The position numbers and the translations under genes are program-made. The notes under the pieces were generated by a model. The model saw nothing but the letters and a program-made list of their open reading frames with translations, ran no database searches and was not told the origin of the DNA. DNA of 22,449 nt from an uncultured Rikenellaceae bacterium (GTDB lineage Bacteria; Bacteroidota; Bacteroidia; Bacteroidales; Rikenellaceae). Below, one piece after another: positions 89-22,140 of this stretch (positions are counted from its first letter, which is position 1; each line of letters begins with the position of its first letter). The stretch is from NCBI GenBank assembly GCA_910588925.1, contig CAJURV010000033.1:1-22449 (forward strand), in the 5' to 3' direction.

Positions 89-138
89 CTGGCGAGACGG
101 TAAGATACTATAAAACACACTGAAGGTATGCGCATTAA
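89..138 (+). repeat. Repeat unit I (copy at window start), fused directly to element A
   Basis: ctggcgagacggtaagatactataaaacacactgaaggtatgcgcattaa. It is followed immediately by cattcGGCACGAGGG, which is the start of the ~300-nt element. Confidence 0.85.
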
Positions 139-146
139 ACAACACC

Positions 147-460
147 ATTCATTCGGCACGAGGGATGAGCGGGCCGCACCTCGCGGTGGGCATAAATTTC
201 CCCCAACGGAGGCCCGCGTAAGTTCCGGCAATCAGATACCTTTTCCGCTTATTTTACACCCGGCTATCTTCTCTGCCCGCCGCGAAGCGCGGTCTCCGCA
301 GGCTCCGGCCCTTGTGACGCCGGGCAATATACCGCCAAAAGTAACATCACTACGCGGTATAACTATCATAAGGAATCGTGTTCATTTCGTCCGGGAAAAA
401 GTTCAGCTAATGCGCATACCGTAAATATCCGAATAAATTCACCGTCTCGCAAACAACCAT
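147..460 (+). repeat. Conserved ~300-nt stem-rich element, copy A (candidate structured ncRNA or non-autonomous element)
   Basis: Shares five conserved blocks, in order, with 12036-12320: GGCACGAGGGATGAGCGGGCCG; CCCCCAACGGAGGCCCGC; CTCCGGCCCTTGTGACGCCGGGCAA; GGA(A/G)TCGTGT…TCCGG…AAAAGTTCAGCTAATGC(G/A)CATA(C/T)CGT; AAATTCACCG(T/C)C(T/C)CGCAAAC. The sequence between blocks differs by indels. GCGGGCC…GGCCCGC and CCGGC…GCCGG form stems that are conserved in both copies. Both copies lie immediately 3' of a minus-strand gene. Confidence 0.8.
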
Positions 461-542: not shown

Positions 543-2135
543 CTATTTCTTAACTATAGGAGCCGCATCGTAATCGAACGACAAGGCATCGATCCACAGT
601 TTCGACCCGGTGGCACCGCAATATCTCTCGCCGTAAACGCTCGACGTGGCTACGAGCACTATATGCGTAGGCTTGATAGTGGTAGTGCGGTACTCGAGGT
701 TTATTACGAACTGCTGGTAGTCGGTAGTAGATGCGTCGGTCTTGAACTCGCCGTACGCTACTATGTCTCTGTCGGCCTCTTTGGGACGTGCCGTGGCTCC
801 GCGCCAGTTCTCCAGATAGATGTATATGTGGCACTTGTCCGTCTCGCCTACATGCTGGGAATCCTCCGGGAATTTGTTCTGATGATATACGTCGATAATA
901 CCCGGCTGATATATGTACCACCCGGAGAGCTTGGCGGGACGACCTGTGAACGGACGCCCGAACTTGGGACTGCTGCCGGGATCCTGGACATTGGTAATGA
1001 AATCTCCGGTAAACAGGTTACCTGCTGCGAGCGGCACCCCTATTGTCACCTTCTTGGTCTCCATATAGGCGGCATACCTGCCCTCCTTTACCTTGTCGGT
1101 GACAGGATAGGTGGCACCGTCGCTCACCATGGCTATACCATCGTTACCGGTAGCCCAATACGGCGCTCCACCTTCGGCGTACGGGAACCAGCAATCGTGA
1201 TTGTTCTTCCTCTTATTAAACCACTCCTCGAAGCTCATATTGGGTATATCCACCACGTCATCGGTGGTGAATGTCTGCTCCTGCCCCCTCTCGTCTCCGA
1301 GGAAAGGACGGCATACGTATTTGGTGCCGGGCTCCAGATCGGTCATCACGGCCGTCATGGTTCCTCCCTCCAACGACACATTGCCTATGTCGGTCTTGGA
1401 CCACACCTCGTCAACATCGCGCCGGTACTCGTAGCCCATCTCCTGATTGGAACCTACGGGCACATCCGCGGTAGCGGTAGCCGTCTTGGTCCACGCCACG
1501 AGGGTCTTGCCGTTGATAGTGAAATTGGCATGCTGGGCCGATACGCGCCACTGCTCCGTACGTCCGAACATGCTCACTTCGAAGACGGTACCGTCTCCCA
1601 AAAGGTCGTATTTACGCTCGTACGGGTCGGGAGTTATCACGGCATTGGCCGGCCCCAGCTCCATCTTGTCTATCCTGACAGACGTAAGAGGCTGCGACTT
1701 GGCCACAGTAACTATCGCCACACGGTTGACGGTATCTATGGAGGCGTTGCCTACCTGATTCTCAACGTTGACGATGTAGTTGACGTCCCATTTGGCGTCG
1801 ATAGTCCACTCGTAATCCTGCCATGTACGCAACGTACAACGGTAGGGACGGGACAGGTTGAGGTTCTCCGGCATTTCGGGCACCATCTCCGTGGAGTCGC
1901 TTATCTCGTAATATATCACCCTCACGTCCGTTATGTCGTGCTCGCCGTCCACAGTGAGGCTTACGGTTCGTTTCACGTTGTCGAACTCGCTTACGCCTAT
2001 CTGTCCCTCCACCTCGAACGCTTTGAAAGAGGGCTGCCTGTTGGGATAGGGTATGTCGTTGACGATACATCCGCCCAACGACAACATCGCCGCAACGATC
2101 GTCACAAGAGTAATGTATCCGTATGCCTGTCTCAT
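543..2135 (-). CDS. Surface lipoprotein with C-terminal PCMD-like domain (paralog 1 of 3)
   Basis: 530-aa ORF. The N-terminus MRQAYGYITLVTIVAAMLSLGGC has a signal peptide and lipobox Cys. The C-terminal ~200 aa (FGRPFTGRP...KPTHIVLVATSSVYG...GSKLWIDALSFD) is clearly homologous to the C-termini of the 700-aa and 723-aa ORFs upstream. An FN3-like strand motif (GTKYVCRPF...QTFTT) precedes it. The ATG overlaps the stop of the upstream gene (ATGA), so it is the last gene of the minus-strand operon. The name PCMD (PF13201) is from memory, not from a search. Confidence 0.8.
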   Translation of the reverse strand: MRQAYGYITLVTIVAAMLSLGGCIVNDIPYPNRQPSFKAFEVEGQIGVSEFDNVKRTVSLTVDGEHDITDVRVIYYEISDSTEMVPEMPENLNLSRPYRCTLRTWQDYEWTIDAKWDVNYIVNVENQVGNASIDTVNRVAIVTVAKSQPLTSVRIDKMELGPANAVITPDPYERKYDLLGDGTVFEVSMFGRTEQWRVSAQHANFTINGKTLVAWTKTATATADVPVGSNQEMGYEYRRDVDEVWSKTDIGNVSLEGGTMTAVMTDLEPGTKYVCRPFLGDERGQEQTFTTDDVVDIPNMSFEEWFNKRKNNHDCWFPYAEGGAPYWATGNDGIAMVSDGATYPVTDKVKEGRYAAYMETKKVTIGVPLAAGNLFTGDFITNVQDPGSSPKFGRPFTGRPAKLSGWYIYQPGIIDVYHQNKFPEDSQHVGETDKCHIYIYLENWRGATARPKEADRDIVAYGEFKTDASTTDYQQFVINLEYRTTTIKPTHIVLVATSSVYGERYCGATGSKLWIDALSFDYDAAPIVKK

Positions 2136-3298
2136 TGCTTTTCCATATTGGTTCTTATCGCCCTCTCGAAATCGTCCTCGGTGGCCTGACGGGCAGATTT
2201 GCGGAACTTGTAGTTGACCGGATTCAAACCTCGCATGGAGTTGATATAGAATGCCATACCGAGATTTATGGAGAAGAGGTCTATCTTGAAGTTGGCCGAA
2301 GTTCGCGAATGTTTACCGGTCTCCACCTGATTGGTTATCTGGTTTATGGTGTTGTATTTCAACCCTAAAACACCCACAGACACCTCCACGCCCACATTAT
2401 CCGTCACAAACGCCACTATACCCGGTGCTAACCCGAGCTGCAGGCTCCGTATCTTCTGGTAGGTACCCTTGACCTCCTCCTTAGAGCTGTTGACGAGCTT
2501 ACCCTGACCGCCGCCGTAGGTAAGACGCGTCTCGTTGAACAGACCTATACGCCTCTGCGTGCCGAGATTGATATAGTTACGTAAGAATAACGAAACATCG
2601 TACTGATGTTGTATATAGGTAAGGTCGTTAATGCCGAAACTAAGGTCGTCGTTGATCTTCAGATTGACGCTCCCAACGTCGGCGGATGTGCGCGAATAGA
2701 CCAAACGCGCGCCTAACGCAGTGTTGTCGGCCACGAAATAACCGATGAACGGACTCACCTTGAACATATAGGCGTCGAGGTTTATATCCTCCACTATCAA
2801 GAACTTATAGTTATCCTCGGTGTAATCCTGAAAAGATATGTTGCCGCCGACGAGCCACTGCCCCTTGGGTACGAACACGATCTGGTCTATCCCTCGGTCG
2901 AACGGATGGCTTCGTCCGCGCATCCAGTTGTTGGCACGCGCCGACTCGCGTTCGGCATAACGCTTGGCACGGTGTTGTTCGTTGCGCTCCTGCAACGGCG
3001 AGGAGATCACGTTACGAATGGTATCTATGCCATACATTCGCTCCTCTATTGCCTTGAGCCTCTGCTCCATCATGCGCGTAAGACTGTCGAGCGACGCCGG
3101 CATCACCGGCACGTAGACCGTGTCTCTGACAGCGACGACACCGGGCTCTTTAGCGCCCTTTACTACGACCGGCACTGAAACCATAGCGGTATCCGAAGCC
3201 ATAATCGATGCCTCCGCCGCCCGACAGATAGCGGGCGACAGAAGCAATATGGCGGCCGTAAGGCCCGTAAGGCCTTTTAGTGATTGCATAAATGACAT
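2132..3298 (-). CDS. Secreted beta-rich protein, putative outer-membrane beta-barrel, unknown function
   Basis: 388 aa. The N-terminal signal peptide MSFMQSLKGLTGLTAAILLLSPAICRAAEA has no canonical lipobox. A charged coiled segment (RLKAIEERMYGIDTIRNV...RAKRYAERESARANN) follows. The C-terminal 250 aa show alternating hydrophobic/polar strand-like segments (YMFKVSPFIGYFVADNTALGARLVYSRT; GIVAFVTDNVGVEVSVGVLGLKY; FKIDLFSINLGMAFYI). It is translationally coupled to both flanking lipoprotein genes (5-nt gap upstream, 4-nt overlap downstream). Confidence 0.55.
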   Translation of the reverse strand: MSFMQSLKGLTGLTAAILLLSPAICRAAEASIMASDTAMVSVPVVVKGAKEPGVVAVRDTVYVPVMPASLDSLTRMMEQRLKAIEERMYGIDTIRNVISSPLQERNEQHRAKRYAERESARANNWMRGRSHPFDRGIDQIVFVPKGQWLVGGNISFQDYTEDNYKFLIVEDINLDAYMFKVSPFIGYFVADNTALGARLVYSRTSADVGSVNLKINDDLSFGINDLTYIQHQYDVSLFLRNYINLGTQRRIGLFNETRLTYGGGQGKLVNSSKEEVKGTYQKIRSLQLGLAPGIVAFVTDNVGVEVSVGVLGLKYNTINQITNQVETGKHSRTSANFKIDLFSINLGMAFYINSMRGLNPVNYKFRKSARQATEDDFERAIRTNMEKQ

Positions 3299-3303
3299 TT
3301 TCG

Positions 3304-5406
3304 TTAATCGAAGAGCAACTCGAACTCGTCGATGTAGAGTGTGCTCCCCTCGCCGCCTATGAAGTCGGCGCCGTACACGCTCGATGTGGCTACGAACACT
3401 ATGTGCGTAGGCTTGATAGTGTTACCCTCGCCGTCTTTCTCAAGGGTGTATTTTATGTCGAAACCACCCTCGGTATATTCAGTGACGTTATCGGCCGTCT
3501 TGAACTCGCCGTAACCCACCACTACAGGGTTCGACGGACGTTCGGAGGTGCCGTCGGGCCACTTCTCGAGACTGATATACACGTGCATTCGGTCAGTCTC
3601 GCCTATGTGCGCATCACCCCTGTTAATGGTAGTAGGCGTATATTTGTAGAAGAAACGCAACCCCGAAGGACGACCGGTATAGGGACGACCGAAATGCGGA
3701 CTATCCTTAGGACTGGATAGGTTGGTCTCAAAATATCCGGTGAAGAGGTTTCCGGCCGCAAAAGTCTTTACGACTACGGCATTGACCCACAGCGACTGCA
3801 TACGTACTCCCCGGCCCTTATATGCTTCCGGCTCGTCTACAGGCGCGGTATTGGAATTGGTCACGATGGTCACTCCGGAGTTACCGGTATCCCAATACTG
3901 ATCCACTCCGTCACCCCACGGATTCCATGTCTTACCGCTCTGGCTCCACGAATCCATATTGAGGTTGGGAATAAGCACGATGTTCTCGGTAGTGAAGCTG
4001 ACCTCGTTGCCCTCTATATCGGCGGAGATCGGACGCACCCTGTATCTGGTATCCGGCTCCAACCCGCGTACGGTAGCGGTAAAGTTCTTACCGTCTATGG
4101 TTATGTCGCTCTCGGGCAAAACGGTCCACGTCTCGTCTGCATCCTTGCGATACTCGAACGTGAGCCCCTCGGGCTGCATACCGGACGTCCACTCGGCCTC
4201 CACGAGAGCGTATTTGGCGAACGCCTCCACCCTCCTGAGGGCAGTGTTGGCATTGGACGAACGTACATTTAGACACACCGTCTGCTCTACTAACTGGCAA
4301 TGGCTGTCGAGCATCATAAGAGTGATATTGTGTTCGCCCGTCTTCATCCCGGCAGTCATACCGCTGAAGTCGATGAAGCCGGAAGAGGTGCCGATACCTC
4401 CCCATCTGAGACCTATGGCATTGAGCGCCGCTACCGTGGCCTCGCCGGCGGTGGTGAGGTTTATGAACTCGGGAAGCCCCTGCGCCACCAGCGACTTATC
4501 GTAGTGAGTGACGTAGAGCAGATCGATACCGGCCTCGGCCTCCACATCTACGCGTGCCGGTACGCTCTCGCCGAACTCAATGAGCGTGAAGCCGTCCATG
4601 TCGAGGTCCGAAGACGAGAACCGCCCCATAGGGCAACGCCCCGGAGTTATCACTATATCGTGGTCGATATCGTCGGTGTTCGGGTCGACGGATATGGACG
4701 AGTGTATGCCGCCGTCGGTTATCTCGCCGCTCTCCGACACCTTGAATGTGAGTATGTAATGCTCTCTGGCCTTTACTCCGGTGATGGTCTTGCGCATCTT
4801 GTAAACAGTCCCCTGCTTGTTGACGAGATTCAATTCCCATGTCAACGAGCCCGGATCCTTGAAATAGCCGGAACGTATCTCCTCCTCCGAGAAAGTAAGC
4901 GAAGCCTTATTGCGGTTATTCTTAACGACAGCCTTATAATAGCTGAACGCCTCGGTGACGCTATGGTCGAAACGCACGCTCACCTTTACGTTGGCTATGC
5001 GGCAAACGAGATTAACCGTCGTAACCTTACCGGTCCTTATCTCGAACGTCTCGCGCCCTACCAGATACGGACTCTCCCAATCGTCGACATCCTTGCCGTT
5101 GGTGGCCACCGCCGTGTAGGTGCCGTTATCCAGCTCTATGACGTCGGGCATATCGTTGCTGTCTTCGAACGACATCACCGCATCGCCCTTCTCATCGAGG
5201 ATCTCCACACGATAAGTGTCCGGATCGGCGGCGTAAGAGACACGTTCCACTACGGATACATCCGAAGTGATACCCTTTATATACAACCGGCCTTTGTTAC
5301 CCACCGTATGCACCGTCGGATCATTGGTACACGAGGCGCACCACACGCACACCAGCGCGGTGATCAGAAGCGCCACACGGCGTCTTATATTGTCGAACGA
5401 TCTCAT
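3304..5406 (-). CDS. Large surface lipoprotein: DUF4493-like N-domain + FN3-like + PCMD-like C-domain (paralog 2)
   Basis: 700 aa. Signal peptide with lipobox (LVCVWCASC). Its N-terminal domain is homologous to the N-termini of the 416-aa and 723-aa ORFs (…NGTYTAVATNGKD…SPYLVGRETFEIRTGKVTTVNLVCRIANVKVSV). An FN3-like motif (TRYRVRPISADIEGNEVSFTT) is followed by a PCMD-like C-terminus (FGRPYTGRP…KPTHIVFVATSSVYG…GSTLYIDEFELLFD). Confidence 0.8.
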   Translation of the reverse strand: MRSFDNIRRRVALLITALVCVWCASCTNDPTVHTVGNKGRLYIKGITSDVSVVERVSYAADPDTYRVEILDEKGDAVMSFEDSNDMPDVIELDNGTYTAVATNGKDVDDWESPYLVGRETFEIRTGKVTTVNLVCRIANVKVSVRFDHSVTEAFSYYKAVVKNNRNKASLTFSEEEIRSGYFKDPGSLTWELNLVNKQGTVYKMRKTITGVKAREHYILTFKVSESGEITDGGIHSSISVDPNTDDIDHDIVITPGRCPMGRFSSSDLDMDGFTLIEFGESVPARVDVEAEAGIDLLYVTHYDKSLVAQGLPEFINLTTAGEATVAALNAIGLRWGGIGTSSGFIDFSGMTAGMKTGEHNITLMMLDSHCQLVEQTVCLNVRSSNANTALRRVEAFAKYALVEAEWTSGMQPEGLTFEYRKDADETWTVLPESDITIDGKNFTATVRGLEPDTRYRVRPISADIEGNEVSFTTENIVLIPNLNMDSWSQSGKTWNPWGDGVDQYWDTGNSGVTIVTNSNTAPVDEPEAYKGRGVRMQSLWVNAVVVKTFAAGNLFTGYFETNLSSPKDSPHFGRPYTGRPSGLRFFYKYTPTTINRGDAHIGETDRMHVYISLEKWPDGTSERPSNPVVVGYGEFKTADNVTEYTEGGFDIKYTLEKDGEGNTIKPTHIVFVATSSVYGADFIGGEGSTLYIDEFELLFD

Positions 5407-5490
5407 TATGATACTCTATTCGTTAATAACCCGAAGCCTTGGCTGACACGTACATGCGCCGCACCGCAGACTCCGAAAAGCCACGCGAGC

Positions 5491-6741
5491 TTAGTCCACC
5501 CTATTGATGGTAAGCGTAGCATTAGCCTCTTCGCCCTTGGCATCCACCAGTCTGATGTGGAATTTATGAACGTTTACGTCGAGCATACTCATGAACGCCC
5601 CAACCGAGAACGATGCGCTGGTAGCTCCAGCGATGGGATCTTCGCCTATAAGACCGAGACCCACGAAACCCTCCTTGAGGTTATCGTCGAGATTAGCTAT
5701 GTCGAAGCTGACGGGAATATTGAAGCTACCGAGTATATCTTCTGTCAGGTACGGCGAATCTATCTCCACGAACAGGTTGGCTATACCCTCCGGAGCGGCG
5801 AAATTAACCACTACCGATGCGCTCGAAGCCTGTGCCGTATTGAACACTAACGGGTTTGATATATTGAAACCTTTACCTTTTATGGTGGGCGCACTACCAT
5901 GCACATCGTCGTCCCACGGATTGTCGATATCGCCGAAATCGCTGCCGTCACCGTCGTCGCCACCCTCCTCGGGCACCGAAACGATATGGTCTTTGTCCGT
6001 CATCGAACCGTCTATCTTGATATTGAAATCGGCCTCGCCCACGCCCATGGCGCTGACATGGAAACGATGCAGCTGGTTGGCCTCGGTCTCGTCTATCATT
6101 ATAGTGTAGGTAAGGAGGCTACCTGTCTTCTTACTGAAACCCTTGGCGGTGACGCTGAGCGGACCCACCGAGAAGAAACCGTACCTCTCCGCACCGTCCG
6201 GCGTGAACACCAATGCGCTCTTTTCAGCACCGGCGTTAGCTTTGGCTATGGTGAGGGTACCGCCGTCGAGCTGCGATGCGAAGCTCTCGTCGAAATCGAC
6301 ATGCACCGCCACGTTATGCAGCTTGCAGAGCAGGTCTACTTCGTTGAGCTGACCGTCGTAAACGCCTATGCGCTCCTCGCCCTTGAAATGAGGACTGTCG
6401 AAACCGGCCAGCTTGACATTGCCGCTCTCGGCCGTTATGGTATAGCTGCCTTTGGCAATCTCCACAACCGGGGGCATATCCGCGTAACGCTCCCATGCGT
6501 AGAGAGCGGCACCGGTGGCGTTATCGGTGAGCGTCACCCTGAAATTATCTATGTCGGCCAATGCGGCGATGGCGTTCTCCTCCTCGGTGGCATAAGTTAC
6601 TATATTGACCCCCTCCGAAGAGAGACCTATCCTAAGGCTAAGACCGTGATCCCCGTCGGGATGCGACATCTCGTCGGTACAAGAGTATATGGATGCTACC
6701 CCTGCCATCACGGCGAATGCGTATGTAAAAATCTTTTTCAT
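5491..6741 (-). CDS. Lipoprotein with DUF4493-like N-domain, an acidic linker and no PCMD domain
   Basis: 416 aa. N-terminus MKKIFTYAFAVMAGVASIYSC. The N-domain motif (GSYTITAESGNVKLAGFDSPHFKGEERIGVYDGQLNEVDLLCKLHNVAV) aligns with the N-domains of the 700-aa and 723-aa paralogs. An acidic low-complexity linker is present (EEGGDDGDGSDFGDIDNPWDDD). Same strand and operon. Confidence 0.75.
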   Translation of the reverse strand: MKKIFTYAFAVMAGVASIYSCTDEMSHPDGDHGLSLRIGLSSEGVNIVTYATEEENAIAALADIDNFRVTLTDNATGAALYAWERYADMPPVVEIAKGSYTITAESGNVKLAGFDSPHFKGEERIGVYDGQLNEVDLLCKLHNVAVHVDFDESFASQLDGGTLTIAKANAGAEKSALVFTPDGAERYGFFSVGPLSVTAKGFSKKTGSLLTYTIMIDETEANQLHRFHVSAMGVGEADFNIKIDGSMTDKDHIVSVPEEGGDDGDGSDFGDIDNPWDDDVHGSAPTIKGKGFNISNPLVFNTAQASSASVVVNFAAPEGIANLFVEIDSPYLTEDILGSFNIPVSFDIANLDDNLKEGFVGLGLIGEDPIAGATSASFSVGAFMSMLDVNVHKFHIRLVDAKGEEANATLTINRVD

Positions 6742-6803
6742 AGTCGTTATATTTTAACGAAATATTTCATGAGGCTCTTGACGGTATCTGTCGAGAAAGC
6801 CCA

Positions 6804-8975
6804 TTAATCCTTTATCTCCGTATATATGAGTTCCACATTATCGACAGTGAGTACATTGCCGATGTATTTGCTGTCTTTGTAGCCCTGAAATGCACCCGCA
6901 GAACCTTTCACTGGATTCACGGACGGGCTGGCAGAAGAGGACGACACGAAAGCTATCTTTATGTGCGTGGTTTTCAAGCGCCTATTATCATAATCGAACT
7001 TAAGTGTCACAGTTTTAAAGTCACCGGCAGGAGTCTTTGCCACATCGGTATCCACCTGCGCACGTCCCAACTCGTTGACCGTACCGTCGGCGGCCCTGTG
7101 CTCCACTATGGCGTATGCGTCGAAGCTCTCGCCGTTTATCTGTGCGAATTTATACGCGAACTTCATTCCCTCGGGACGCGACGGGAACTGACGACCCATG
7201 TTTTCGGTACGACCGGCCAAATCGTAATCGCCTATGAACAACATGCCCGGGGTTATATTTTTCTTTATGCCGTCGGCACCAAATGGGAATGTCGACCCTC
7301 TACCCCAGTTGACTGTGCTTATCTCAGCCGCAAGACCGCTGACACCCTGTGCCGAGCGCGTGCCGGAATATTGGCAATAATAATTCGCCGTACCGGATCT
7401 GTCGCTGGTCGTCAACGCATTGCGCGTATCCCAATATTTGCTTGACGGGTCGTTATAATCGTAAGGGAATACTTCGAATATCTCTATGTTCATACCCGAA
7501 TTTTTGCCGTAGCACATCTGCTCGCTCCACCTCTCGAAGCCGGCATCGGGCACCTGCGCCGCCGTCTCCGTGGTAATGTCGATAGGTTCGCCGAAAGTGT
7601 GACCGTTATAAGCCATTCTCACCCTATAAGAGGTGTTGGGCGCGAAACCCCACGATTTAAGATCGACTCTGTCGCCATCCTCGCTTACAGTACGGCTCTC
7701 GGACAGATCTTCCCATCTGCCGTTTCGGTATATCTGCGTGGAGAACTTGGCAGGATTGGCATCGGCGACGGTGGCCCCGGTCTCTATGTGGGTGGCCCAT
7801 GCGGCGCCCTCGAACGGAAGCCATTCGAACGTAGCCCCGTTGGTTTGAGCCGTGTACACGTCGCTATCTACGCTCTGCCCCAAACCGTCGGTAACCCTCA
7901 GAGAGAAAGCGTGTTCGCCCGCTTCGAGCAAGCCGAGTGTACCGCTCAGATCGACCGTGCCGGAGATATTGTCGGTCATGTCGTCCCATTTCAGAGAGTC
8001 GCGCCGAACTATATTTTTGGTCTGCGTATCTATAGTGAGCAGGTCGAATTCGGCAGGCCATCCGCGTCCGAGCAACGTGGGAGAGTTAACCTTGACTATG
8101 CACTCGCGTATCTGCCCCGGAGCGAATATACCGATGCGGGCATCGTGCGAGAAGCCGTCGGTGTAGGTCACCCTCTTGTCGGCGCCGAAACCTGTGGCCG
8201 TATAGACGGGCGCGGGCTTGGGCGTCATTAACTTGGGTATCTCGAAGACAAGCTCCTTGTCGTCGGTGGAGAGATCTTTGGTTATATCGAGCGAAAAAGA
8301 GCCGTTCTCGCTACGCAAAAAGAGCGTTATATGATCGCCCGGAGCCACATCCTTAATGGTGGGGGGAATATAGACCTTGTCCTCGCCGTCGGCATTGGTG
8401 TAAGAGATGCGGAAACGCACGTCGGCAGGGGGAGCGAATGCCGAACGCTCCTCGTCCGAAGCGAAAGTAAGACGCTGTTCGGAGGTGTAGAGCAAAACGC
8501 TGTAGTCGCTATGTGCAGACTTGAAATCGTCCTCGGCGACCACGGATATGCACACGTTACGGAGCTTTGCCGTGACGGTGACGGGCGTGACCTGTCCGGC
8601 CTTTATCTCCACCGGAGTCTCGCCGTAATAATAGGGTTTGGCAAAGCCTACTTTGGTAGAATCGCCGTAGAAAGCGACCACTTTATGGTTACCGCTACGC
8701 ACCTTGCCGTTACCGATAAGGTCGGAATAACGATTCCATTTCTTAATGAGCGTCTCGCCGGAATATACCAGAAGTCTGAAATTGCCGAGAGTGGTGCCCC
8801 ACGGGTCTATCGCCGCATTAAGATCGCTCACCTCCCCTGAAGAATAAGAGACCAGAGACAATCCTATCTCGCCGTCGAGACCCTCTTTCTCTTGACCGCC
8901 GTTCTCGAACTGACTGCATCCTGCAAAGACCAAGGCCAGAAACGACAGCGATATCAAAGTAAATTTTTTATCCAT
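6804..8975 (-). CDS. Large surface lipoprotein, first gene of operon (paralog 3): DUF4493-like N-domain + FN3-like + divergent PCMD-like C-domain
   Basis: 723 aa. N-terminus MDKKFTLISLSFLALVFAGCSQFENGG has a canonical lipobox followed by a polar/acidic stretch, typical of surface-exposed Bacteroidetes lipoproteins. The N-domain is homologous to those of the 416-aa and 700-aa ORFs. An FN3-like motif (TSYRVRMAYNGHTFGEPIDITT) is present. The C-terminus (RQFPSRPEGMKFAYKF…KTTHIKIAFVSSSSASP…GNVLTVDNVELIY) is a diverged PCMD-like domain. Confidence 0.75.
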   Translation of the reverse strand: MDKKFTLISLSFLALVFAGCSQFENGGQEKEGLDGEIGLSLVSYSSGEVSDLNAAIDPWGTTLGNFRLLVYSGETLIKKWNRYSDLIGNGKVRSGNHKVVAFYGDSTKVGFAKPYYYGETPVEIKAGQVTPVTVTAKLRNVCISVVAEDDFKSAHSDYSVLLYTSEQRLTFASDEERSAFAPPADVRFRISYTNADGEDKVYIPPTIKDVAPGDHITLFLRSENGSFSLDITKDLSTDDKELVFEIPKLMTPKPAPVYTATGFGADKRVTYTDGFSHDARIGIFAPGQIRECIVKVNSPTLLGRGWPAEFDLLTIDTQTKNIVRRDSLKWDDMTDNISGTVDLSGTLGLLEAGEHAFSLRVTDGLGQSVDSDVYTAQTNGATFEWLPFEGAAWATHIETGATVADANPAKFSTQIYRNGRWEDLSESRTVSEDGDRVDLKSWGFAPNTSYRVRMAYNGHTFGEPIDITTETAAQVPDAGFERWSEQMCYGKNSGMNIEIFEVFPYDYNDPSSKYWDTRNALTTSDRSGTANYYCQYSGTRSAQGVSGLAAEISTVNWGRGSTFPFGADGIKKNITPGMLFIGDYDLAGRTENMGRQFPSRPEGMKFAYKFAQINGESFDAYAIVEHRAADGTVNELGRAQVDTDVAKTPAGDFKTVTLKFDYDNRRLKTTHIKIAFVSSSSASPSVNPVKGSAGAFQGYKDSKYIGNVLTVDNVELIYTEIKD

Positions 8976-9407: not shown

Positions 9408-10847
9408 ATGGCAATAACAGACCAGAAATTATCGGGTCAGACGAGAGTCGAACACGACCTGCTCGGCGACAAGAACATTCCCGTCGAATACTATTTCGGC
9501 GTACAGACCATGCGTGCCATGGAGAACTTCCACATCAGCCGCGTAAGGCTCAACATGTACCCCGTTTTCATCAAAGCGCTGGCTATGGTGAAACAGGCTG
9601 CAGCGGAAGCTAACTGCGAGCTCGGCATACTCAAGCCCGAAATACGCGACGCCATCGTGGCCGCTTGTAAAGAGGTGCGCGAAGGCAAGTTCGACGACCA
9701 TTTCGTAGTAGACATGGTACAAGGCGGCGCCGGCACATCTACCAACATGAATGCCAACGAGGTGATCGCCAACCGTGCCCTCGAGCTGATGGGCCACAAG
9801 AAAGGCGAATACAAATACTGCCATCCCAACAACCACGTCAACCTGTCGCAGTCTACGAATGACGCCTATCCCACATCGGTGCGCGTGGCTCTTCTCAACC
9901 GCACCCGCGACCTTGTCGACGCACTCAAGGTATTGGTAGAGGCATTCCGTGCCAAAGGCGAAGAGTTCGCCGATGTCATCAAGATGGGCCGCACTCAGAT
10001 GCAGGACGCAGTGCCCATGACCCTCGGACAGGAGTTCGGGGCATACGCTGCCACCCTGTCTGAAGAGATAGAACGCCTCGAGAACAACGTACGTCTGTTC
10101 CTCGAAGTAAACATGGGTGCCACTGCCATCGGTACCGGTATCAACTCCGATCCCGACTACACCCCCACCTGTATCAAATATCTATGCGAGATCACCGGCA
10201 TGCCTATGGTAGCCGCCGGCAACATGATCGAAGCGACCAACGATACCGGCGCGTTCATCATGTACTCATCGGCTGTCAAACGTCTGGCCGTCAAGCTATC
10301 TAAGATAAGCAACGACCTTCGCTTGCTCTCGTCAGGTCCTCGCACCGGTTTCAACGAGATCAACCTGCCTCCCATGCAACCCGGTTCTACCATCATGCCC
10401 GGCAAGGTCAACCCCGTCATACCCGAGGTAGTGAGCCAGATAGCATTCAAGGTGATAGGCAACGACCTCACGGTAACGATGGCGGTAGAGGCCGCACAGC
10501 TCGAGCTTAACGCTATGGAGCCCATCATTGTGCAGGCACTCTTCGAAAACATCGAAATGCTTATCAACGGCATGAACACACTCCGCGAAAGATGTATCGT
10601 AGGCATCACCGCCAACAAAGAGCGTTGCCGCCAAATGGTTTACAACAGCATAGGTTTGGTTACGGCTCTCAACCCCTACCTCGGTTACGAAGTATCTACC
10701 GAGCTGGCGAAAGAGGCCCTCGAAAACAATAAAGGCGTGTACGACCTGGTTCTCGAAAAAGGGCTCATGTCGAAAGAAGAACTCGACAACGTACTCCGCC
10801 CCGAGAACATGGTAAAACCCCGCAAGTTCATCGGCAAGAACGTTTAA
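9408..10847 (+). CDS. aspA: Aspartate ammonia-lyase (aspartase)
   Basis: 479 aa. This is a fumarase/aspartase-family protein with the GSTIMPGKVNP signature. It aligns along its whole length with E. coli AspA as I recall it (DLRLLSSGPRTGFNEINLP, FKVIGNDLTVTMA, GITANKERC, YNSIGLVTALNP). It is clearly closer to aspartase than to FumC. Confidence 0.9.
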   Translation: MAITDQKLSGQTRVEHDLLGDKNIPVEYYFGVQTMRAMENFHISRVRLNMYPVFIKALAMVKQAAAEANCELGILKPEIRDAIVAACKEVREGKFDDHFVVDMVQGGAGTSTNMNANEVIANRALELMGHKKGEYKYCHPNNHVNLSQSTNDAYPTSVRVALLNRTRDLVDALKVLVEAFRAKGEEFADVIKMGRTQMQDAVPMTLGQEFGAYAATLSEEIERLENNVRLFLEVNMGATAIGTGINSDPDYTPTCIKYLCEITGMPMVAAGNMIEATNDTGAFIMYSSAVKRLAVKLSKISNDLRLLSSGPRTGFNEINLPPMQPGSTIMPGKVNPVIPEVVSQIAFKVIGNDLTVTMAVEAAQLELNAMEPIIVQALFENIEMLINGMNTLRERCIVGITANKERCRQMVYNSIGLVTALNPYLGYEVSTELAKEALENNKGVYDLVLEKGLMSKEELDNVLRPENMVKPRKFIGKNV

Positions 10848-10863
10848 CATCTTTATACATATA

Positions 10864-10915
10864 AATATCGGAGGCTGCATCCTTAAAGAAGATGCAGCCT
10901 CCGATATTTATATGT
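10864..10915. terminator. Intrinsic terminator after aspA
   Basis: Perfect ~17-bp stem aatATCGGAGGCTGCATC / GATGCAGCCTCCGATatt with a 9-nt loop, followed by ttatatgtat, starting 17 nt after the aspA stop. Approximate coordinates. Confidence 0.75.
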
Positions 10916-11137
10916 ATATGGTTGTACCTCCCGGCAGCCACTTGGTGAAGGTGATTTGTCGAGTGGCAAAGTACCAGAAACAATGGACTTTCAGAAGTAC
11001 ACGATATGCAGTAAAGCAAAAAAAATAAAGATGAACACTTTAGTACATCATGCTACTAATTATATACATAATGCGACTCATGAAAATCTAATTATGTTAT
11101 AATTTCGAGACAAAAGGTTCGGCATTTACGCTACCGA

Positions 11138-11188
11138 CTGGCGAGACGATAAAAACACCTCACAACTTCCCAAAGCTATGCGCATTGA
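11138..11188 (+). repeat. Repeat unit I (copy a): CTGGCGAGACG…(C)TATGCGCATTGA
   Basis: A ~50-nt unit beginning CTGGCGAGACG(A/G)TAA and ending with the palindromic core ATGCGCAT plus a T(T/G)A flank. Copies occur at 89-138, 11138-11188, 11271-11320 and 22091-22140. Confidence 0.85.
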
Positions 11189-11270
11189 CTGAAACGCTCT
11201 CGCTCCGTATCAGGAGCGCAACACAAGACTTGCGCTTCTTTAGAAGTGCAAAGTATAGTACACAATTCCG

Positions 11271-11320
11271 CTGGCGAGACGATAAGATACTACAAAATAC
11301 ACTGAAAGTATGCGCATTAA
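11271..11320 (+). repeat. Repeat unit I (copy b)
   Basis: ctggcgagacgataagatactacaaaatacactgaaagtatgcgcattaa is about 85% identical to the copies at 89-138 and 22091-22140. Confidence 0.85.
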
Positions 11321-11549
11321 CAAATACATCCATGCGGCACGGGGTGCCGCTCCGCAATAACCTCCACGAATTAACAGAACAGAGGTTGGGAAACTCCCCG
11401 GCGAAACAAAAAAGACATCGGAGCTTAACGACATGCGCATTAACCGCAAGTCGCAGGCATGCTAGCCCGTGTACACAACTAAAGACCGCAGGGCGCCGAA
11501 GTTTTTTAGACCTCAAAAATCGTCGATCGCGGTCGTGTGCCTCGGAGCG
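11321..11549 (+). repeat. Repeat unit II (hairpin-rich ~230-nt module), unoccupied version
   Basis: Colinear with 22141-22449 at roughly 80% identity. Shared segments include catgcGGCACgggGTGCCgctccgc (7-bp hairpin), acatgcgcattaaccgcaagtcgcaggcatgc, gaccgcagggcgccgaa and tttttagacctcaaaaatcgtcgatcgcgg. This copy lacks the 67-nt insert present in the 22141-22449 copy. Confidence 0.8.
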
Positions 11550-12035
11550 TACTCGATGTACGTGAGGATGGCTCACGAACGGGATCGGCGATTTTTGTGG
11601 CTAAAAAGCGACGGAAACAGCCCCACGTTAACCGAACCTCGCGCACACAAACCGACAATTCATGCGTTCAGAGATCGCGTACTTCCTAAACTTCACTAAA
11701 ACTTCCTACACGTACGACCCGAACCTATAAAATCCCTAACGCGTCCCCGAAGGGGATGCACCTGCACGAGCAATACAAAAACGTCCCCAACAAAAACAAA
11801 CGGTACTAAAGCGGAAACGATATGAACTTCCAACTACACTAAACACAACTGCGAAAGACAAGGCACAGAAAGCAACCTAACAACGACCGACCAAAACGCC
11901 GTAAGGCGTACACGCCCGAGCGAAGTGAGGGGCATAAATACGAACAAGCAGATTCAAACACGCCGTAAGGCGTACTAATGTTAGCAAAAAGCCCGAGCGA
12001 AGCGAGAGCAATCAAACACAACTTCCGCCGTTAAA

Positions 12036-12320
12036 TCCCGAGGCACGAGGGATGAGCGGGCCGGAGCCTCCCCCAACGGAGGCCCGCTTATACGGTTGGT
12101 TATTTATAGTATTTATCGCCTTTTTATATAAAATCACTCTCTCGAATGTCACACTCGAGCGGTCCCCCGCATGCTCCGGCCCTTGTGACGCCGGGCAAGG
12201 TATCGCTAAAATCCATGTAAACCACATAATAATAGGAGTCGTGTCAATTCCATCCGGCGAAAAGTTCAGCTAATGCACATATCGTCAAGATAGAGAAAAT
12301 TCACCGCCCCGCAAACCGTC
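12036..12320 (+). repeat. Conserved ~300-nt stem-rich element, copy B
   Basis: See copy A. Same block order and orientation. A different AT-rich insertion lies between blocks 2 and 3. The element ends about 35 nt before the pgi terminator hairpin. Confidence 0.8.
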
Positions 12321-12352
12321 TGACGAAGACACGAAAGCCCTCATTCTCACCC

Positions 12353-12385
12353 AATAATAAAAAAGGGGGTACCTGCCCCCTATCC
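12353..12385 (-). terminator. Intrinsic terminator of the gpsA-pgi operon
   Basis: On the minus strand, GGGGGcaggtaCCCCC is followed by TTTTTTATTATT, immediately after the pgi stop codon. Confidence 0.75.
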
Positions 12386-12389
12386 TTAA

Positions 12390-14821: not shown

Positions 14822-15142
14822 TACAATAATCTTTTTTGCACACAATGCTCTCGAACACAGGGATTATTAGCCCATGCTATCGGAAACACCGGATACATAC
14901 AACACGGACCGCGGGAAAGATCTTGCGAAAATATCGCAGGCCCCTCTACGCTAAACTATTCTCCCTACAAAACAGAAAGCCCCAAGGTCCGAATTGGTTT
15001 TAAAGATAGGTATTTTATTCCAAGCATGCAAATCGCCAGCTCCGGACGTTGCCTTTCCGACACTTTCGTATGAATAACCGCCTTATTTTCACAGACATCT
15101 CAACCACCGTAGACAAAGCCAGAGCACGATCGCTTTTGCGCT

Positions 15143-15307
15143 CGGCTTATTCGTATCTTTGGCTGTGCCTTAGATACTCCGCCTCGACAAACCCAAACAA
15201 GTTTGCTTTTGTATTCGGCTTATTCGTATCTTTGACTTCGTCTTAGATACTGCGCCTCAACAAACCCAAACAAGTTTGTTTTTGTATTCGGCTTATTCGT
15301 ATCTTTG
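15143..15307 (+). repeat. 2.3 tandem copies of a 73-bp repeat, each carrying TTTG…TATCTTTG promoter-like motifs
   Basis: The unit cggcttattcgTATCTTTG-(n)-cttagatact-cgcctc-acaaacccaaacaaGTTTGyttttgtatt occurs at 15143-15215, 15216-15288 and 15289-15307 (partial). Each unit carries a TAnnTTTG -7 motif about 21 nt downstream of a TTTG, which is the Bacteroidetes sigma-A architecture. It lies ~130 nt upstream of the hydrolase ATG. The first 13 nt (tgcgctcggctta) are shared with the small hairpin element family. Confidence 0.7.
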
Positions 15308-15348: not shown

Positions 15349-15414
15349 TTTTCTCGCCCCGGCAATCGAAACTTCGTTTCATTGCGCTCGGCTCATCGAA
15401 AACGTCAGCTTTAT
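15349..15414 (-). repeat. Small hairpin element copy (reverse orientation) in the hydrolase 5' region
   Basis: gttttctcgccccggcaatcgaaacttcgtttcattgcgctcggctcatcgaaaacg is the reverse complement of the 22329-22395 copy at about 90% identity. The internal hairpin GAAAC-UUCG-GUUUC has a UUCG tetraloop. Confidence 0.75.
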
Positions 15415-18248: not shown

Positions 18249-18360
18249 ATTCGATAGATCGCACAATATCACACGCGTTTTTCGCTTCGGGCAATCGAAA
18301 CCCATTTTAGTTGTACAAACCTCTCGTCACATATAATTTTAAACGTTGAATTTCATTCTA

Positions 18361-18420
18361 CATTTTCTCGCCTCGGCATAACCAAATTTCATTTGCTTCT
18401 GCTCTCGGCTTACCGAAAAC
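18361..18420 (-). repeat. Small hairpin element copy (reverse orientation)
   Basis: cattttctcgcctcggcataaccaaatttcatttgcttctgctctcggcttaccgaaaac is the reverse complement of positions 1-57 at about 93% identity. Confidence 0.8.
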
Positions 18421-18441
18421 GTTCGTTTTTATGCAGAAGTT

Positions 18442-18497
18442 TTCGATAGACCGGGCGCAATGAAATTAAGTGTCGATTGTATTCGGTTTATCGAAAA
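18442..18497 (+). repeat. Small hairpin element copy (+ orientation), diverged; forms an inverted pair with 18361-18420
   Basis: ttcgatagaccgggcgcaatgaaattaagtgtcgattgtattcggtttatcgaaaa. The two copies face each other across a ~20-nt spacer (gttcgtttttatgcagaagtt). Confidence 0.6.
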
Positions 18498-22090: not shown

Positions 22091-22140
22091 TTGGCGAGAC
22101 GGAAAGATACTATAAAACACACTAAAGGTATGCGCATTAG
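22091..22140 (+). repeat. Repeat unit I (copy c)
   Basis: ttggcgagacggaaagatactataaaacacactaaaggtatgcgcattag. Confidence 0.85.

Follow-up and report, generated by a model that had tools for sequence, protein, structure and literature searches.

The palindrome ATGCGCAT, which recurs along the 22,449 nucleotides of uncultured Rikenellaceae DNA analysed here (the window), is not free-standing: it is the invariant box of a unit of about 48 bases that lies within an interspersed non-coding repeat of 1.1–1.5 kb. This element family is confined to one Rikenellaceae lineage, is very abundant there, and is apparently undescribed so far, a full-text literature search for the motif and for repeats and non-coding RNAs of Rikenellaceae or Alistipes having found nothing relevant. 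Compensatory changes, wobble pairs and a constant skew towards A+C suggest that the + strand functions in single-stranded form, probably as RNA. The box itself is tentatively read, at rather less than even confidence, as a cis-acting pairing or binding site in the element RNA, a reading narrowly preferred to that of a transposase site in DNA.

Recurrence of the palindrome in the window

ATGCGCAT occurs seven times, at 128, 410, 11178, 11310, 11433, 22130 and 22255, whereas 100 dinucleotide shuffles averaged 0.61 and never exceeded 3; together with one degenerate copy, this bears out the original observation that a palindromic motif recurs here. The orientations first given also hold: with its flank, as YATGCGCATTRR, the palindrome lies on the + strand at 127, 11177, 11309, 11432, 22129 and 22254 and on the − strand at 407, and the degenerate copy, TATGTGCATTAG, lies on the − strand at 12270. 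All eight sites, the seven exact and the one degenerate, fall inside three copies (R1–R3) of one non-coding element and share a conserved context of about 28 nt, CCYRAAGRN-ATGCGCATT-ARCYGMAA. The sites whose number had been set against the odds of a random 10-mer are real, but their independence was overstated: they belong to three paralogous copies with a conserved context, so that the 10-mer statistic tallies the copies of a repeat instead of separate events. Nor is palindromy strong evidence by itself, since about 4 perfect 8-nt palindromes are expected per 1.1 kb by chance.

Matches with two mismatches, at 15880 and 19579, are at chance level. Outside the elements, ATGCGCAT appears roughly five times in about 190 kb of related DNA, which is about the chance rate, so that the enrichment beyond the window that had been proposed as a check is found inside the element family and nowhere else; a chance or free-standing site was rejected on the same ground, the enrichment existing solely as part of the repeat family. 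The looser version reported near 17000, GCATAATGCGGCATT, proved unrelated and was rejected as an instance of the motif, being the end of a conserved 59-aa gene; a relative carrying no repeat elements (L024) has the same sequence. Lack of enrichment or variable positions had been named as outcomes that would count against the motif; it is enriched, though within the family only, and its positions are fixed.

Architecture of the element

The unit of about 48 nt consists of a U box, GGCGAGAC, a free spacer and a P box, YATGCGCATTARC, the palindrome being the invariant core of the P box at the 3' side (consensus CCYRAAGRN-ATGCGCATT-ARC). The site first noted at 89–138 is unit I of R1. The parts of the three copies are as follows.

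R1, 89–455, + strand: internally deleted copy with homology to R2 and R3, laid out as unit I, a junction at GGCACG, 3' domains E1/E2 and an inverted unit
R1 unit I, 90–138, + strand: U box TGGCGAGACG at 90–99, 28-nt spacer, P box TATGCGCATTAA at 127–138, palindrome at 128–135
R1 inverted unit (3' arm), 407–452, − strand: palindrome at 410–417, U box CCGTCTCGCAA at 442–452
R2, 11139–12314, + strand: full-length copy
R2 unit 0, 11139–11188, + strand: U box at 11139–11148, P box TATGCGCATTGA, palindrome at 11178–11185
R2 module W, after unit 0: hairpins at 11200–11250, common to L046, L048, L050, L051 and L053
R2 unit I, 11272–11320, + strand: U box at 11272–11281, palindrome at 11310–11317
R2 module X, 11321–11399, + strand: hairpins H1 (GCGGCAC-GGG-GTGCCGC) and H2 (AGAG loop)
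R2 unit II, 11400–11443, + strand: degenerate U box GGCGAAAC at 11400–11407, type-b spacer, palindrome at 11433–11440
R2 central long hairpin, 11497–11618, + strand: A-tract before and U-tract after, like a bidirectional terminator; holds the 22-mer AGACCTCAAAAATCGTCGATCG
R2 middle region, 11619–12040, + strand: A+C 0.66, C/G 1.45
R2 3' domains, 12042–12215, + strand: E1 GAGCGGGCC...GGCCCGC and E2 CCGCAKGCTCCGGCCCTTGTGACGCCGGGC
R2 inverted unit, decayed, 12270–12314, − strand: P box TATGTGCATTAG, palindrome position 12273–12280, U box CCGCCCCGCAA at 12304–12314
R3, 22092–22449, + strand: copy cut by the end of the window
R3 unit I: U box at 22092–22101, palindrome at 22130–22137, followed by module X
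R3 unit II: TGCGAGC at 22221–22227, palindrome at 22255–22262
R3 M-a insertion: 71 nt at about 22319–22389, with the central hairpin from 22390

R2 sits between convergent genes for a lyase of the aspartase/fumarase class and for glucose-6-phosphate isomerase (PGI). The deletion in R1 joins GGCACG of hairpin H1 to GGCACG of E1, and in strains L032 and L033 the copy at this locus is full-length. R3 is found complete in L029 (9417–10846). M-a is a separate small hairpin repeat.

Two to four direct copies of the unit, 125–185 nt apart, lie in the 5' third of the element. The P box follows the U box at 33–38 nt across unrelated spacers, and the U-to-P spacing counted in 58 distinct units is 32–37 nt. 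In R1, R2 (decayed), L050, L061b and L062b/c, the whole unit is also inverted once at the 3' end; about half of the full copies lack this arm (R3, including its full copy in L029, L013, L051, L053, L056 and L061d). A correlation of the arm with a convergent downstream gene was considered and rejected, the pattern being inconsistent. In an alignment of 22 copies, the first two P boxes (P1 and P2) are nearly invariant, while the spacers are of unrelated types, a and b; the box is kept across both types, across units 0, I and II, and in the inverted arm, which has a third unrelated spacer. Measured against the 22-mer that the family conserves best, AGACCTCAAAAATCGTCGATCG, the boxes have fixed positions in 20 copies: P1 precedes it by 192–271 nt, and P2 by 75 nt (once 74) where that interval is free of insertions. 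The statement that the motif always lies at a module boundary thus stands insofar as its positions are fixed and it brackets the more variable segments, but the actual indels and strain polymorphisms break elsewhere. The 5' edge of the element is sharp, (G/T)GT|TGGCGAGACG, beside unrelated flanks in more than 20 copies, with a weak (G/T)GT preference in the left flank. For finding and counting further copies, GGCGAGAC followed by 25–30 nt and ATGCGCATTA serves as a handle.

Abundance and conservation of the family

About 40 further copies were found in strains of the same species, in a sister species (about 84% DNA identity) and in metagenomes. They share an architecture conserved over about 1.05 kb, in which the parts follow one set order for about 1 kb (U-P-W-U-P-X-U-P-Y-hairpin-middle-E1-E2) and family-wide conservation stops at the end of E1/E2 (R2 12215). 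About 73 kb of the same species contain 11 copies, approximately one per 7–9 kb, and the metagenome-assembled genome (MAG) of the sister species holds 10, nearly all at contig ends; in relatives with a PGI 82–92% identical, about 38 kb of syntenic DNA contained no element. As a rule, bacteria have compact genomes with short interspersed repeats (REP, BOX, Correia, MITEs), whereas in this gut-type Rikenellaceae lineage 1.1–1.5 kb recur about every 7–9 kb, a density that, if genome-wide, would make these non-coding elements about a tenth of the genome. The elements break up short-read assemblies, with many contigs ending within them, and together with the adjoining small M-a repeats they mark sites of strain-to-strain rearrangement. 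R1, R2 and R3 are present in every strain examined (six or more), and relatives without them are rearranged at those points, so that an empty site is unreadable there. The indels and strain polymorphisms seen comprise the deletion in R1, a duplication of 58 nt within module X, the insertion of M-a (71 nt) and patches of conversion.

Blocks of 20–40 nt are identical between species whose genes share only 83.7% identity, and about 600 nt of internal sequence are conserved above the level of neighbouring genes. R2, R3 and L013, a copy from the sister species, were retrieved independently of AGACCTCAAAAATCGTCGATCG and have the same 30-mer around it; in the 16 metagenome loci, the 22-mer cannot vary, having been the search key of the scan.

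No counterpart turned up among known families and proteins. At gathering thresholds, Rfam identified only a tRNA-Leu in the whole window, and a permissive search of Rfam 15 (E up to 5–10) with R2, R3 (in L029) and L061c returned noise only. Plasmid and phage collections yielded no relatives of the element, and a viral origin was rejected, the four matches in viral collections being due to chance. The open reading frames of the element have no Pfam match. A hidden or decayed protein gene was likewise rejected: the 144-codon frame through R2, which stays open because the strand is poor in T, retrieves just 11 out of 5.8 billion predicted proteins, each of them another copy of the element.

Strand-specific structure

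Several features of the element distinguish its two strands. A+C amounts to 0.63–0.70 of the element + strand in 13 of 13 copies, regardless of contig orientation, and the middle is C-rich and G-poor (C/G 1.45–1.71). The central hairpin is more stable by 8–17 kcal/mol as + strand RNA in all 18 copies compared; in R2, it is predicted at −67 kcal/mol as + strand RNA and −47 kcal/mol as − strand RNA. Across 29 copies, 91.5% of the cells in hairpins H1–H3 are paired, and the + strand is rich in wobble pairs, one pair of H2 being GU in 18, AU in 9 and GC in 1. In module X, both sides have changed in 5 of 19 pairs, compared with 1.2 in shuffles, and none of 500 shuffles reaches that number; in the 3' half, some sequence has both sides changed with pairing kept at 6 of 54 predicted pairs (for example, ATCCC/GGGAT to ATTCC/GGAAT), the copies in both counts being related and the changes not independent events. 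Also among the aligned copies, the CGCC/GGCG stem reads TGCC/GGCA in R3 (two copies of the hairpin, in different alignment columns), and the GTAA loop becomes GCAA in other copies. The middle-region hairpins of R2 are CCCC-GAA-GGGG, CGCC-GTAA-GGCG (twice) and GAGC-GAA-GCGAG. In the 5' half, where stems are almost invariant, RNAalifold reported compensatory changes in 0 of 54 pairs. The wobble and loop features (C-GAA-G, GCGAAGC, C-GTAA-G) suit single-stranded DNA intermediates as well as RNA.

The U/P unit alone forms no hairpin. The palindrome is self-complementary, so that direct copies can pair with each other. When X domains are folded in isolation, the minimum-energy structure contains a helix between P1 and P2 in 8 of 8 cases, and the RNAalifold consensus includes it too; any repeated palindrome, however, is automatically predicted to pair in this way, and the helix becomes unstable once 355 nt are folded. 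Covariation gives P1:P2 no support: of the three natural variants, one is compatible with a wobble and two break the pair, and the candidate was set aside because the variants are too few and none is compensated. At R1, the arm pairs with unit I in folds of either strand, through 13 bp (GGTATGCGCATTA) and 10 bp (GCGAGACGGT), and the ends pair when the whole copy is folded (z = −4.6). In the decayed 3' arm of R2, two changes per helix, as read from the sequence, would be wobbles on the − strand and not on the + strand.

As for transcription, the element at L061c starts 41 nt past a stop codon with no terminator between and must therefore be co-transcribed there; overall, the elements start 40–700 nt past the stop codon, and not at the terminator. 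No conserved promoter could be defined upstream of the U box. Co-orientation with the upstream gene, found in 23 of 24 elements, was discarded as a rule, as it is largely automatic in convergent spacers and the informative tandem cases stand at 4 versus 2. An orientation by replication strand, as for IS200/IS605, was also rejected, the L061 copies lying on both strands within 20 kb.

A proposed cis-acting box in the element RNA

These observations suggest that the element acts as a single-stranded nucleic acid of + polarity, most likely RNA. Transcription would proceed by read-through from the gene whose 3' end adjoins the element, or start just downstream of that gene. The resulting RNA would have a structured 5' part, a very stable central hairpin resembling a terminator, and a C-rich, G-poor and largely unstructured stretch with small capped hairpins. 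Within it, the P boxes may serve as cis-acting contact sites: P1 and P2 would form an 8-bp helix closing module X, and the P and U boxes would pair with the inverted unit at the far end, as in the 13 + 10 bp predicted for R1. Equally, the same boxes may be a repeated binding motif of an RNA-binding protein. A broader and considerably more speculative proposal, judged unlikely, is that each element serves as a gene or module for one member of a new family of large RNAs (about 0.4–1.1 kb) present in very high copy, the family being either a 3'-UTR or terminator cassette exploited by the host or an RNA-based selfish element, in which the self-complementary AUGCGCAU boxes clamp modules or join molecules. 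If RNA is the functional form, this would be a new large, multi-copy structured RNA without a relative in Rfam.

Alternative explanations

The most serious competitor, somewhat less probable than the RNA reading, treats the U and P boxes as terminal and subterminal sites of a trans-acting transposase or recombinase, the element being a large non-autonomous mobile element with several direct sites on the left and one inverted on the right (Tn7, Mu, IS21 or IR/DR-like). Transposon ends are classically built in this manner, from a bipartite unit of constrained spacing that has a terminal copy in inverted orientation: in the inverted arms of about 48 bp, both boxes are conserved and their spacing is held, the spacer sequence is not, and the palindromic core suits a dimeric binder. 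The sharp 5' edge beside unrelated flanks and the high-copy, intergenic and lineage-restricted distribution, with absence from syntenic sites of relatives, agree with mobility, and hairpins with G.T pairs and GNA triloops would fit a single-strand (HUH-type) mechanism. However, no target-site duplication is present at R1, R2, L061b or L050 (the R2 flanks offer only a 5/6 match, ACCGAC/ACCGTC, which overlaps U-like sequence and is no direct repeat), no open reading frame lies between the arms, and no transposase, recombinase or Y1/HUH gene or autonomous partner was found in any locus, over about 190 kb of related DNA. The arm missing from about half of the full copies, the direct sites spaced far more widely than in known multi-site ends, and the lack of presence/absence polymorphism at R1–R3 also count against it, and the polymorphisms that are known end off the boxes. 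A passive passenger needs no internal conservation, yet about 600 nt are conserved, and a double-stranded binding site has no use for the constant A+C skew. The original idea of a recognition site for an enzyme that propagates the repeats survives in that the box is a cis signature of a repeat family, with a paired U box and inverted arms; the transposase, the target duplication, the Y1 (HUH) gene and the strain-polymorphic termini at the palindrome that were sought for it did not appear at the loci and strains examined. If the element is nevertheless mobile DNA, it would be an unusually large and internally constrained non-autonomous one. The other early suggestion, an operator for a dimeric regulator, is unlikely because the sites lie downstream of genes, mostly between convergent ones. 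It is quite improbable, too, that the box has no function of its own, as one conserved stretch of an internally duplicated unit kept alike by descent or gene conversion, with a coincidental palindrome. The P box is matched in invariance by other blocks of the element, the expected number of chance palindromes is considerable, 6-nt palindromes and the like occur in the element too (GCATGC, CGATCG, GTAC), copies at R3 show patchy conversion across strains, and orthologues are no closer to one another than paralogues. Against this, the box outlives the replacement of its surroundings (both spacer types, all three direct units and the inverted arm), the U box holds its distance to the P box, and a given conserved 10–12-mer contains a perfect 8-nt palindrome with a chance of only about 1–2%.

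Two further readings have very little to recommend them. A BoxA-like loading site for Nus factors, shielding a long untranslated, C-rich transcript from Rho, is barely credible. The stretch TGCGCATTAAC resembles the rrn BoxA, TGCTCTTTAAC, agreeing with the E. coli BoxA at 9 of 11 positions in a comparison made for this analysis, and the C-rich, G-poor middle of the element would be a good Rho substrate. The mismatches fall at positions 4 and 6, where the P box has G4, and A6 instead of U6; a strong intrinsic terminator comes after the box; and the likeness is one picked out of many motifs. BoxA is used by CRISPR arrays and other long non-coding transcripts, also in Bacteroidetes, where the motif equals the E. 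coli consensus (PMC7665894); a transversion at position 2, 5 or 6 eliminates both antitermination and the binding of NusB-NusE (PMC3177189). When held to BoxA membership (UGCUCUUUAACAA, with G2, C5 and U6 essential), the P box fails at U6, and the candidate was rejected. A promoter on the opposite strand is just as remote: the reverse complement of the P-box flank, GCGCA-TAnCTTTG-GG, yields a Bacteroidetes −7 box, TAnnTTTG, from which each unit would fire outward or leftward. The perfect TAnnTTTG occurs as TAGCTTTG in unit 0 of R2 and as TACCTTTG in several copies of the sister-species MAG, but this part varies, most copies having TACCTTCA, TATCTTCA or TTTCTTTG, and the invariant part is instead the palindrome, which would fall at about −10 to −20. 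There is no TTG at −33, and in R3 such a promoter would fire only into the terminator of the upstream gene. With the − strand TAnnTTTG in a minority of copies and the −33 TTG missing, a Bacteroidetes sigma-A promoter was rejected.

Comparison with known systems

The family resembles large structured RNAs discovered by comparative genomics, such as GOLLD, ROOL, the HEARO/IscB omega-RNA and OLE, which likewise have hundreds of nucleotides of conserved non-coding sequence and capped hairpins and are sometimes multi-copy; the element differs in having no Rfam 15 match (three copies searched), a far higher copy density and modest covariation support. An ORF-less group II intron of class C was rejected, with no match to Intron_gpII or group-II-D1D4 in three copies (E up to 5–10). 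The element begins with UGGCGAG, compared with GUGYG in group II introns, and its sole D5-like hairpin has 6 bp and a 5-nt loop without a bulge. Insertion of the IIC type after terminators was rejected as well, given the absence of ribozyme domains and the start positions described above.

Among mobile DNA, MITEs, Correia elements and the ends of Tn7, Mu, IS21 and IR/DR Tc1-like elements share the inverted arms that some copies have, the bipartite terminal and subterminal site, several direct sites at one end, the lack of coding capacity and internal-deletion derivatives. From these, the element departs in having no target-site duplication and no autonomous partner found, in being 3–10 times longer than typical MITEs, in its strong internal conservation and in the arm missing from about half of the copies. 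The PATEs of IS200/IS605 and REPIN/RAYT systems (Y1 HUH) resemble the element in their intergenic location at high copy, in strand-specific hairpins that contain G.T pairs and in leaving no target duplication, but they lack terminal inverted repeats, measure 100–400 nt, and have subterminal hairpins and a defined cleavage tetranucleotide, whereas the ends of the element are inverted repeats. At the loci examined, there was no TnpA, RAYT or TnpB gene and no omega-RNA-like match.

HIP1, GCGATCGC, of cyanobacteria is similarly an 8-bp G+C-rich palindrome over-represented within one lineage, yet it is spread through genes and spacers alike, unlike ATGCGCAT, which outside the element family occurs at chance frequency. 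BIMEs/REPs of E. coli and the pneumococcal BOX (A-Bn-C) are, like the element, mosaic non-coding sequences placed after genes, with stable stem-loops and complementary end modules. They become part of 3' UTRs on transcription, and BIMEs influence both the stability of mRNA and termination. Their size, 40–300 bp, contrasts with the 1,100–1,500 bp of the element and its roughly 600 nt of conserved sequence outside hairpins. REPs are themselves imperfect palindromes with a GTAG head for the REP-associated tyrosine transposase (RAYT), neither of which the element shows; a REP/BIME with RAYT was rejected, as the unit has no hairpin and no GTAG and forms direct repeats 125–185 nt apart, not alternating clusters.

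Neisserial intergenic mosaic elements (NIMEs) consist of RS modules split by dRS3 repeats of 20 bp, which have inverted ends and at which filamentous prophages integrate by means of a Piv/IS110-type recombinase. The element has neither a recombinase nor a prophage linked to it, and NIME modules of 50–150 bp are freely shuffled, whereas the order in the element is fixed over about 1 kb. What the two have in common is an intergenic array of modules bounded by a short dyad-symmetric signature, at high copy, specific to a lineage and prone to recombination.

Palindrome sites and the element that carries them

The palindrome ATGCGCAT occurs at seven sites in the window (128, 410, 11178, 11310, 11433, 22130 and 22255), compared with a mean of 0.61 and a maximum of 3 in dinucleotide-preserving shuffles. 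The site orientations of the original prediction were confirmed using the flank YATGCGCATTRR, and its degenerate minus-strand copy, TATGTGCATTAG at 12270, was recovered. The looser version proposed near 17000 is the terminal stretch of a conserved gene encoding 59 aa and also occurs in a relative without any repeats, so it is not a member of the palindrome set. All eight sites are confined to three gene-free stretches, which hold copies of one element:

1-542: R1
10848-12389: R2, 1.5 kb, with convergent genes for an aspartase/fumarase-class lyase and glucose-6-phosphate isomerase (PGI) on either side
21919 to window end: R3, cut by the window end

Self-comparison revealed that R1, R2 and R3 are paralogous, and about 40 copies can be aligned over ~1.05 kb in a single architecture. 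The 5' part holds one to three units, with a module (W, X or Y) behind each of them; within a unit, the U box TGGCGAGACG precedes by 33-38 nt the P box ATGCGCATTARC, of which the palindrome is the core. A ~110-nt central hairpin between A and U tracts follows, then ~450 nt rich in A+C, in which small capped hairpins occur, and finally the 3' domains E1 and E2. An inverted U/P unit lies 60-100 nt beyond E1/E2 in R1, R2 and the copies L050, L061b and L062b/c (L numbers denote loci or contigs from other strains, relatives, sister species or metagenomes), and pairing over 13 + 10 bp is possible between the ends of R1.

In 192 kb of related DNA, ATGCGCATT was found in 76 distinct contexts, with a conserved context of ~28 nt, and U-to-P distances cluster at 33 and 36-37 nt. 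The P box of unit II (P2) stands 75 nt (74 once) before the most conserved 22-mer in copies without an intervening insertion, and that of unit I (P1) 192-271 nt before it. The U-P spacer can be replaced wholesale with the boxes kept: the two types before P2, a and b, show no relation to each other, and yet other spacers occur in inverted arms. Module X and its P box are tandemly duplicated in L012 (104-341) and L061 (14943-15272), giving at least three successive palindromes at 125-183-nt intervals.

Neither an ORF nor a Pfam domain or Rfam family was linked to the element, and no relatives of it were found among plasmid, phage or viral sequences. An open frame of 144 codons crosses R2 (11131-11562), in which all three palindromes share the frame and each reads Cys-Ala-Leu-Thr; gene callers at times annotate such frames as hypothetical proteins of 150-170 aa. 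It was rejected as a gene, the frame not being conserved between copies, and it is open because the strand is T-poor.

Distribution of the element

Searching one genome for each prokaryotic species with the pattern TGGCGAGACG-N20-35-TATGCGCATT returned 10 copies, all in one Rikenellaceae MAG. Nearly all lie 100-300 nt or less from contig ends, which marks the sequence as an assembly-breaking repeat; numerous contigs of the window's own species likewise end within R2, just past PGI. A metagenome scan with the 22-mer, AGACCTCAAAAATCGTCGATCG, yielded 16 additional loci, and more copies came from other strains, through contigs encoding window proteins or element-derived pseudo-ORFs. The window carries three copies in 22.4 kb, L061 four in 20.5 kb and L062 four in 16.9 kb, with none in the 13.5 kb that extend the window (L035, L029). 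This totals 11 copies in ~73 kb, or 6 in ~48 kb if DNA chosen through the element is left out; by extrapolation rather than counting, a genome would hold hundreds.

Neither the element nor ATGCGCAT was found in ~38 kb of syntenic DNA from relatives whose PGI is 92%, 85% and 82% identical. The MAG represents a sister species (genes 83.7% identical over 3.6 kb) with the element at the same locus, adjoining rsmG (GidB). This orthologous copy shows 78.6% identity over 548 nt, no closer than paralogues (up to 81%). Blocks of 20-40 nt are nevertheless identical in all copies of both species, which points to block-wise constraint, gene conversion or both.

Strand-specific constraint and transcription

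In the 29 copies analysed, pairing in the three hairpins of module X reaches 91.5%. Two-sided changes, counted among related copies and so not as independent events, affect 5 pairs in module X against 1.2 in shuffles (0/500 as high), 6 of 54 predicted pairs in the 3' half, each of them altered on both sides in some sequence with pairing retained, and 0 of 54 in the 5' half overall, because the stems there hardly vary. In the 3' half, ATCCC/GGGAT aligns with ATTCC/GGAAT, a CGCC/GGCG stem is TGCC/GGCA in R3 (the two copies of that hairpin standing at different alignment columns), and a GUAA loop becomes GCAA, also GNRA, in aligned copies. Wobble pairs are frequent on the element's own, plus strand: one pair of hairpin H2 in module X is GU 18 times, AU 9 times and GC once, and H1 shows the series C-G, U.G, U-A. 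The central hairpin averages -62.3 kcal/mol as plus-strand RNA and -48.7 as minus-strand RNA, the plus strand being more stable in 18/18 copies. In the middle region, the plus strand has an A+C content of 0.63-0.70 and a C/G ratio of 1.45-1.71 in 13/13 copies, whichever the contig orientation. Strand-specific features are meaningless for a double-stranded protein site, and they point to a plus strand that functions as RNA; possibly it acts as single-stranded DNA instead, since several loops belong to the C-GAA-G / GCGAAGC type.

The 5' end of the element faces a gene's 3' end in 23 of the 24 copies first examined, a count weakened because this arrangement is automatic in convergent spacers. 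In the informative tandem-gene contexts, four copies are co-oriented (R3, L061c, L062b, L062c) and two are not (L061b and the remnant L062a), so an orientation bias toward the upstream gene is suggestive only. In L061c (L061 14871-14912), a radical-SAM gene ends at a stop codon 41 nt before the U box, and the interval contains no recognisable terminator; at least that copy must therefore be transcribed, and its central hairpin may be the terminator of that gene.

Comparison between strains

The proposal that the palindrome marks the termini of mobile copies was contradicted by strain comparisons. R3 (L029 9417-10846 versus L032 9417-10746; window 22150-22449) is ~99-100% identical between strains save for three differences. 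A mosaic patch of dense substitutions, from past H1 to ~60 nt beyond P2 with P2 intact within, looks like gene conversion from a paralogous copy; a 71-nt module, M-a, occurs in some strains between GCAGGGCGC and CGARNCTTTTTAGACC, 65 nt beyond P2, and is missing from others; and the tip of the central hairpin is replaced. The window's R1 arose by internal deletion from a full-length copy, which strains L032 and L033 still keep (L032 4835-6100). The deletion joins two GGCACG motifs (window 155-176 versus 12042-12063) and removed ~700 nt, from module X past GGCACG through unit II, module Y and the central hairpin to the A+C-rich middle inclusive. Module X comes in a long and a short form, which differ in that the hairpin segment is tandemly duplicated (58 nt). 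Complete copies have no target duplications beside them, and R1-R3 are present in all strains examined. Since the strain polymorphisms do not end at the box, it is a conserved anchor bracketing variable segments, not a demonstrated breakpoint.

M-a is a second, separate hairpin repeat of ~58-77 nt with the core YCGRTAAGCCGAGCGCA...GAAAC-GAA-GTTTC...TGCCGAGGCGAGAAAA. Its copies are:

1-58: window
15349-15405, minus strand: window
18360-18417, minus strand: window
18433-18479: window
22319-22389: window
9790-10220: L035

Two tandem copies of 77 nt lie immediately upstream of the window start. At R3, the window and L029-31 have the 71 nt, whereas L032-34 lack them; CGAACTTTTT / CGAAGCTTTTT flank the insertion, and the empty site reads CGAGACTTTTT. 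Another element copy (L044/L055) shares this insertion and its position. Relative to L032, L033 and L034, ~18 kb of the window (~58 to ~18360) are inverted, and in those strains the PCMD gene (window 543-2135) adjoins holin-like/YtxH genes (window ~18.5-19.6 kb). The breakpoints coincide with two M-a copies of 58 nt (1-58 and 18360-18417), inverted repeats that are 95% complementary.

Possible roles of the palindrome

Tentatively, the palindrome is regarded as an element that acts in cis at the RNA level, through pairing, protein binding or both. Direct-repeat copies of a self-complementary 8-mer could pair with each other in RNA, and the inverted unit could pair with unit I. When isolated domains are folded, a P1:P2 helix closing module X is found at minimum energy in 8/8, with extra pairing of GGU 5' of P1 and ACC 3' of P2 in 5/8, and it recurs in the RNAalifold consensus; it is not robust in 355-nt folds, and the three natural P1/P2 variants comprise one wobble-compatible, two mismatched and no compensated cases. 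Recognition at the DNA level, as at a transposon end, accounts equally well for the bipartite unit, its spacing and the inverted copy, but it leaves unexplained why the interior is conserved, why base composition is skewed, why some arms are missing and why neither target duplications nor an enzyme were found, and is judged somewhat unlikely.

Palindromy is weak evidence by itself, because chance alone would give ~4 perfect palindromes of 8 nt in every 1.1 kb. That this one has no function of its own is improbable in our view. Mismatches at BoxA positions 4 and 6 make a BoxA-like site very hard to credit, as does lack of conservation for a minus-strand -7 promoter box.

Genes of the window

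The remaining window is ordinary Bacteroidales chromosome, with a DUF4493/PCMD lipoprotein cluster and genes for glycerol-3-phosphate dehydrogenase, a beta-lactamase-fold protein, an ABC-3 permease, tRNA-Leu and an SPFH protein. Five consecutive minus-strand genes (543-8975) comprise four lipoprotein-like paralogues (DUF4493 and/or PCMD), up to 91% identical in DNA over stretches (629-684 versus 3369-3424), and one beta-barrel-like gene. Three tandem 73-nt repeats (15116-15307) lie 5' of the beta-lactamase-fold gene, with an M-a copy in between; each contains TTCGTATCTTTG, a perfect Bacteroidetes -7 promoter box (TAnnTTTG). Immediately after the lyase stop codon, a 35-bp inverted repeat (10847-10925; 91% complementary, 9-nt loop) forms a terminator-like, unusually long hairpin, the source of spurious microRNA-family matches in a permissive Rfam search.

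Comparison with known systems

Full-text literature searches returned no description of the element, and by defining features it could be assigned to none of the families considered. There is a small but real chance that it represents a large RNA, new and multi-copy, or an RNA-based element. In kind, it is an interspersed intergenic mosaic repeat, as are BIME/REP, BOX, Correia and the neisserial NIMEs with their dRS3 signature. What sets it apart from these is its size of 1.1-1.5 kb, fixed module order and very high density, together with ~600 nt of conserved non-hairpin sequence, a central bidirectional-terminator-like hairpin and strand-specific constraints.
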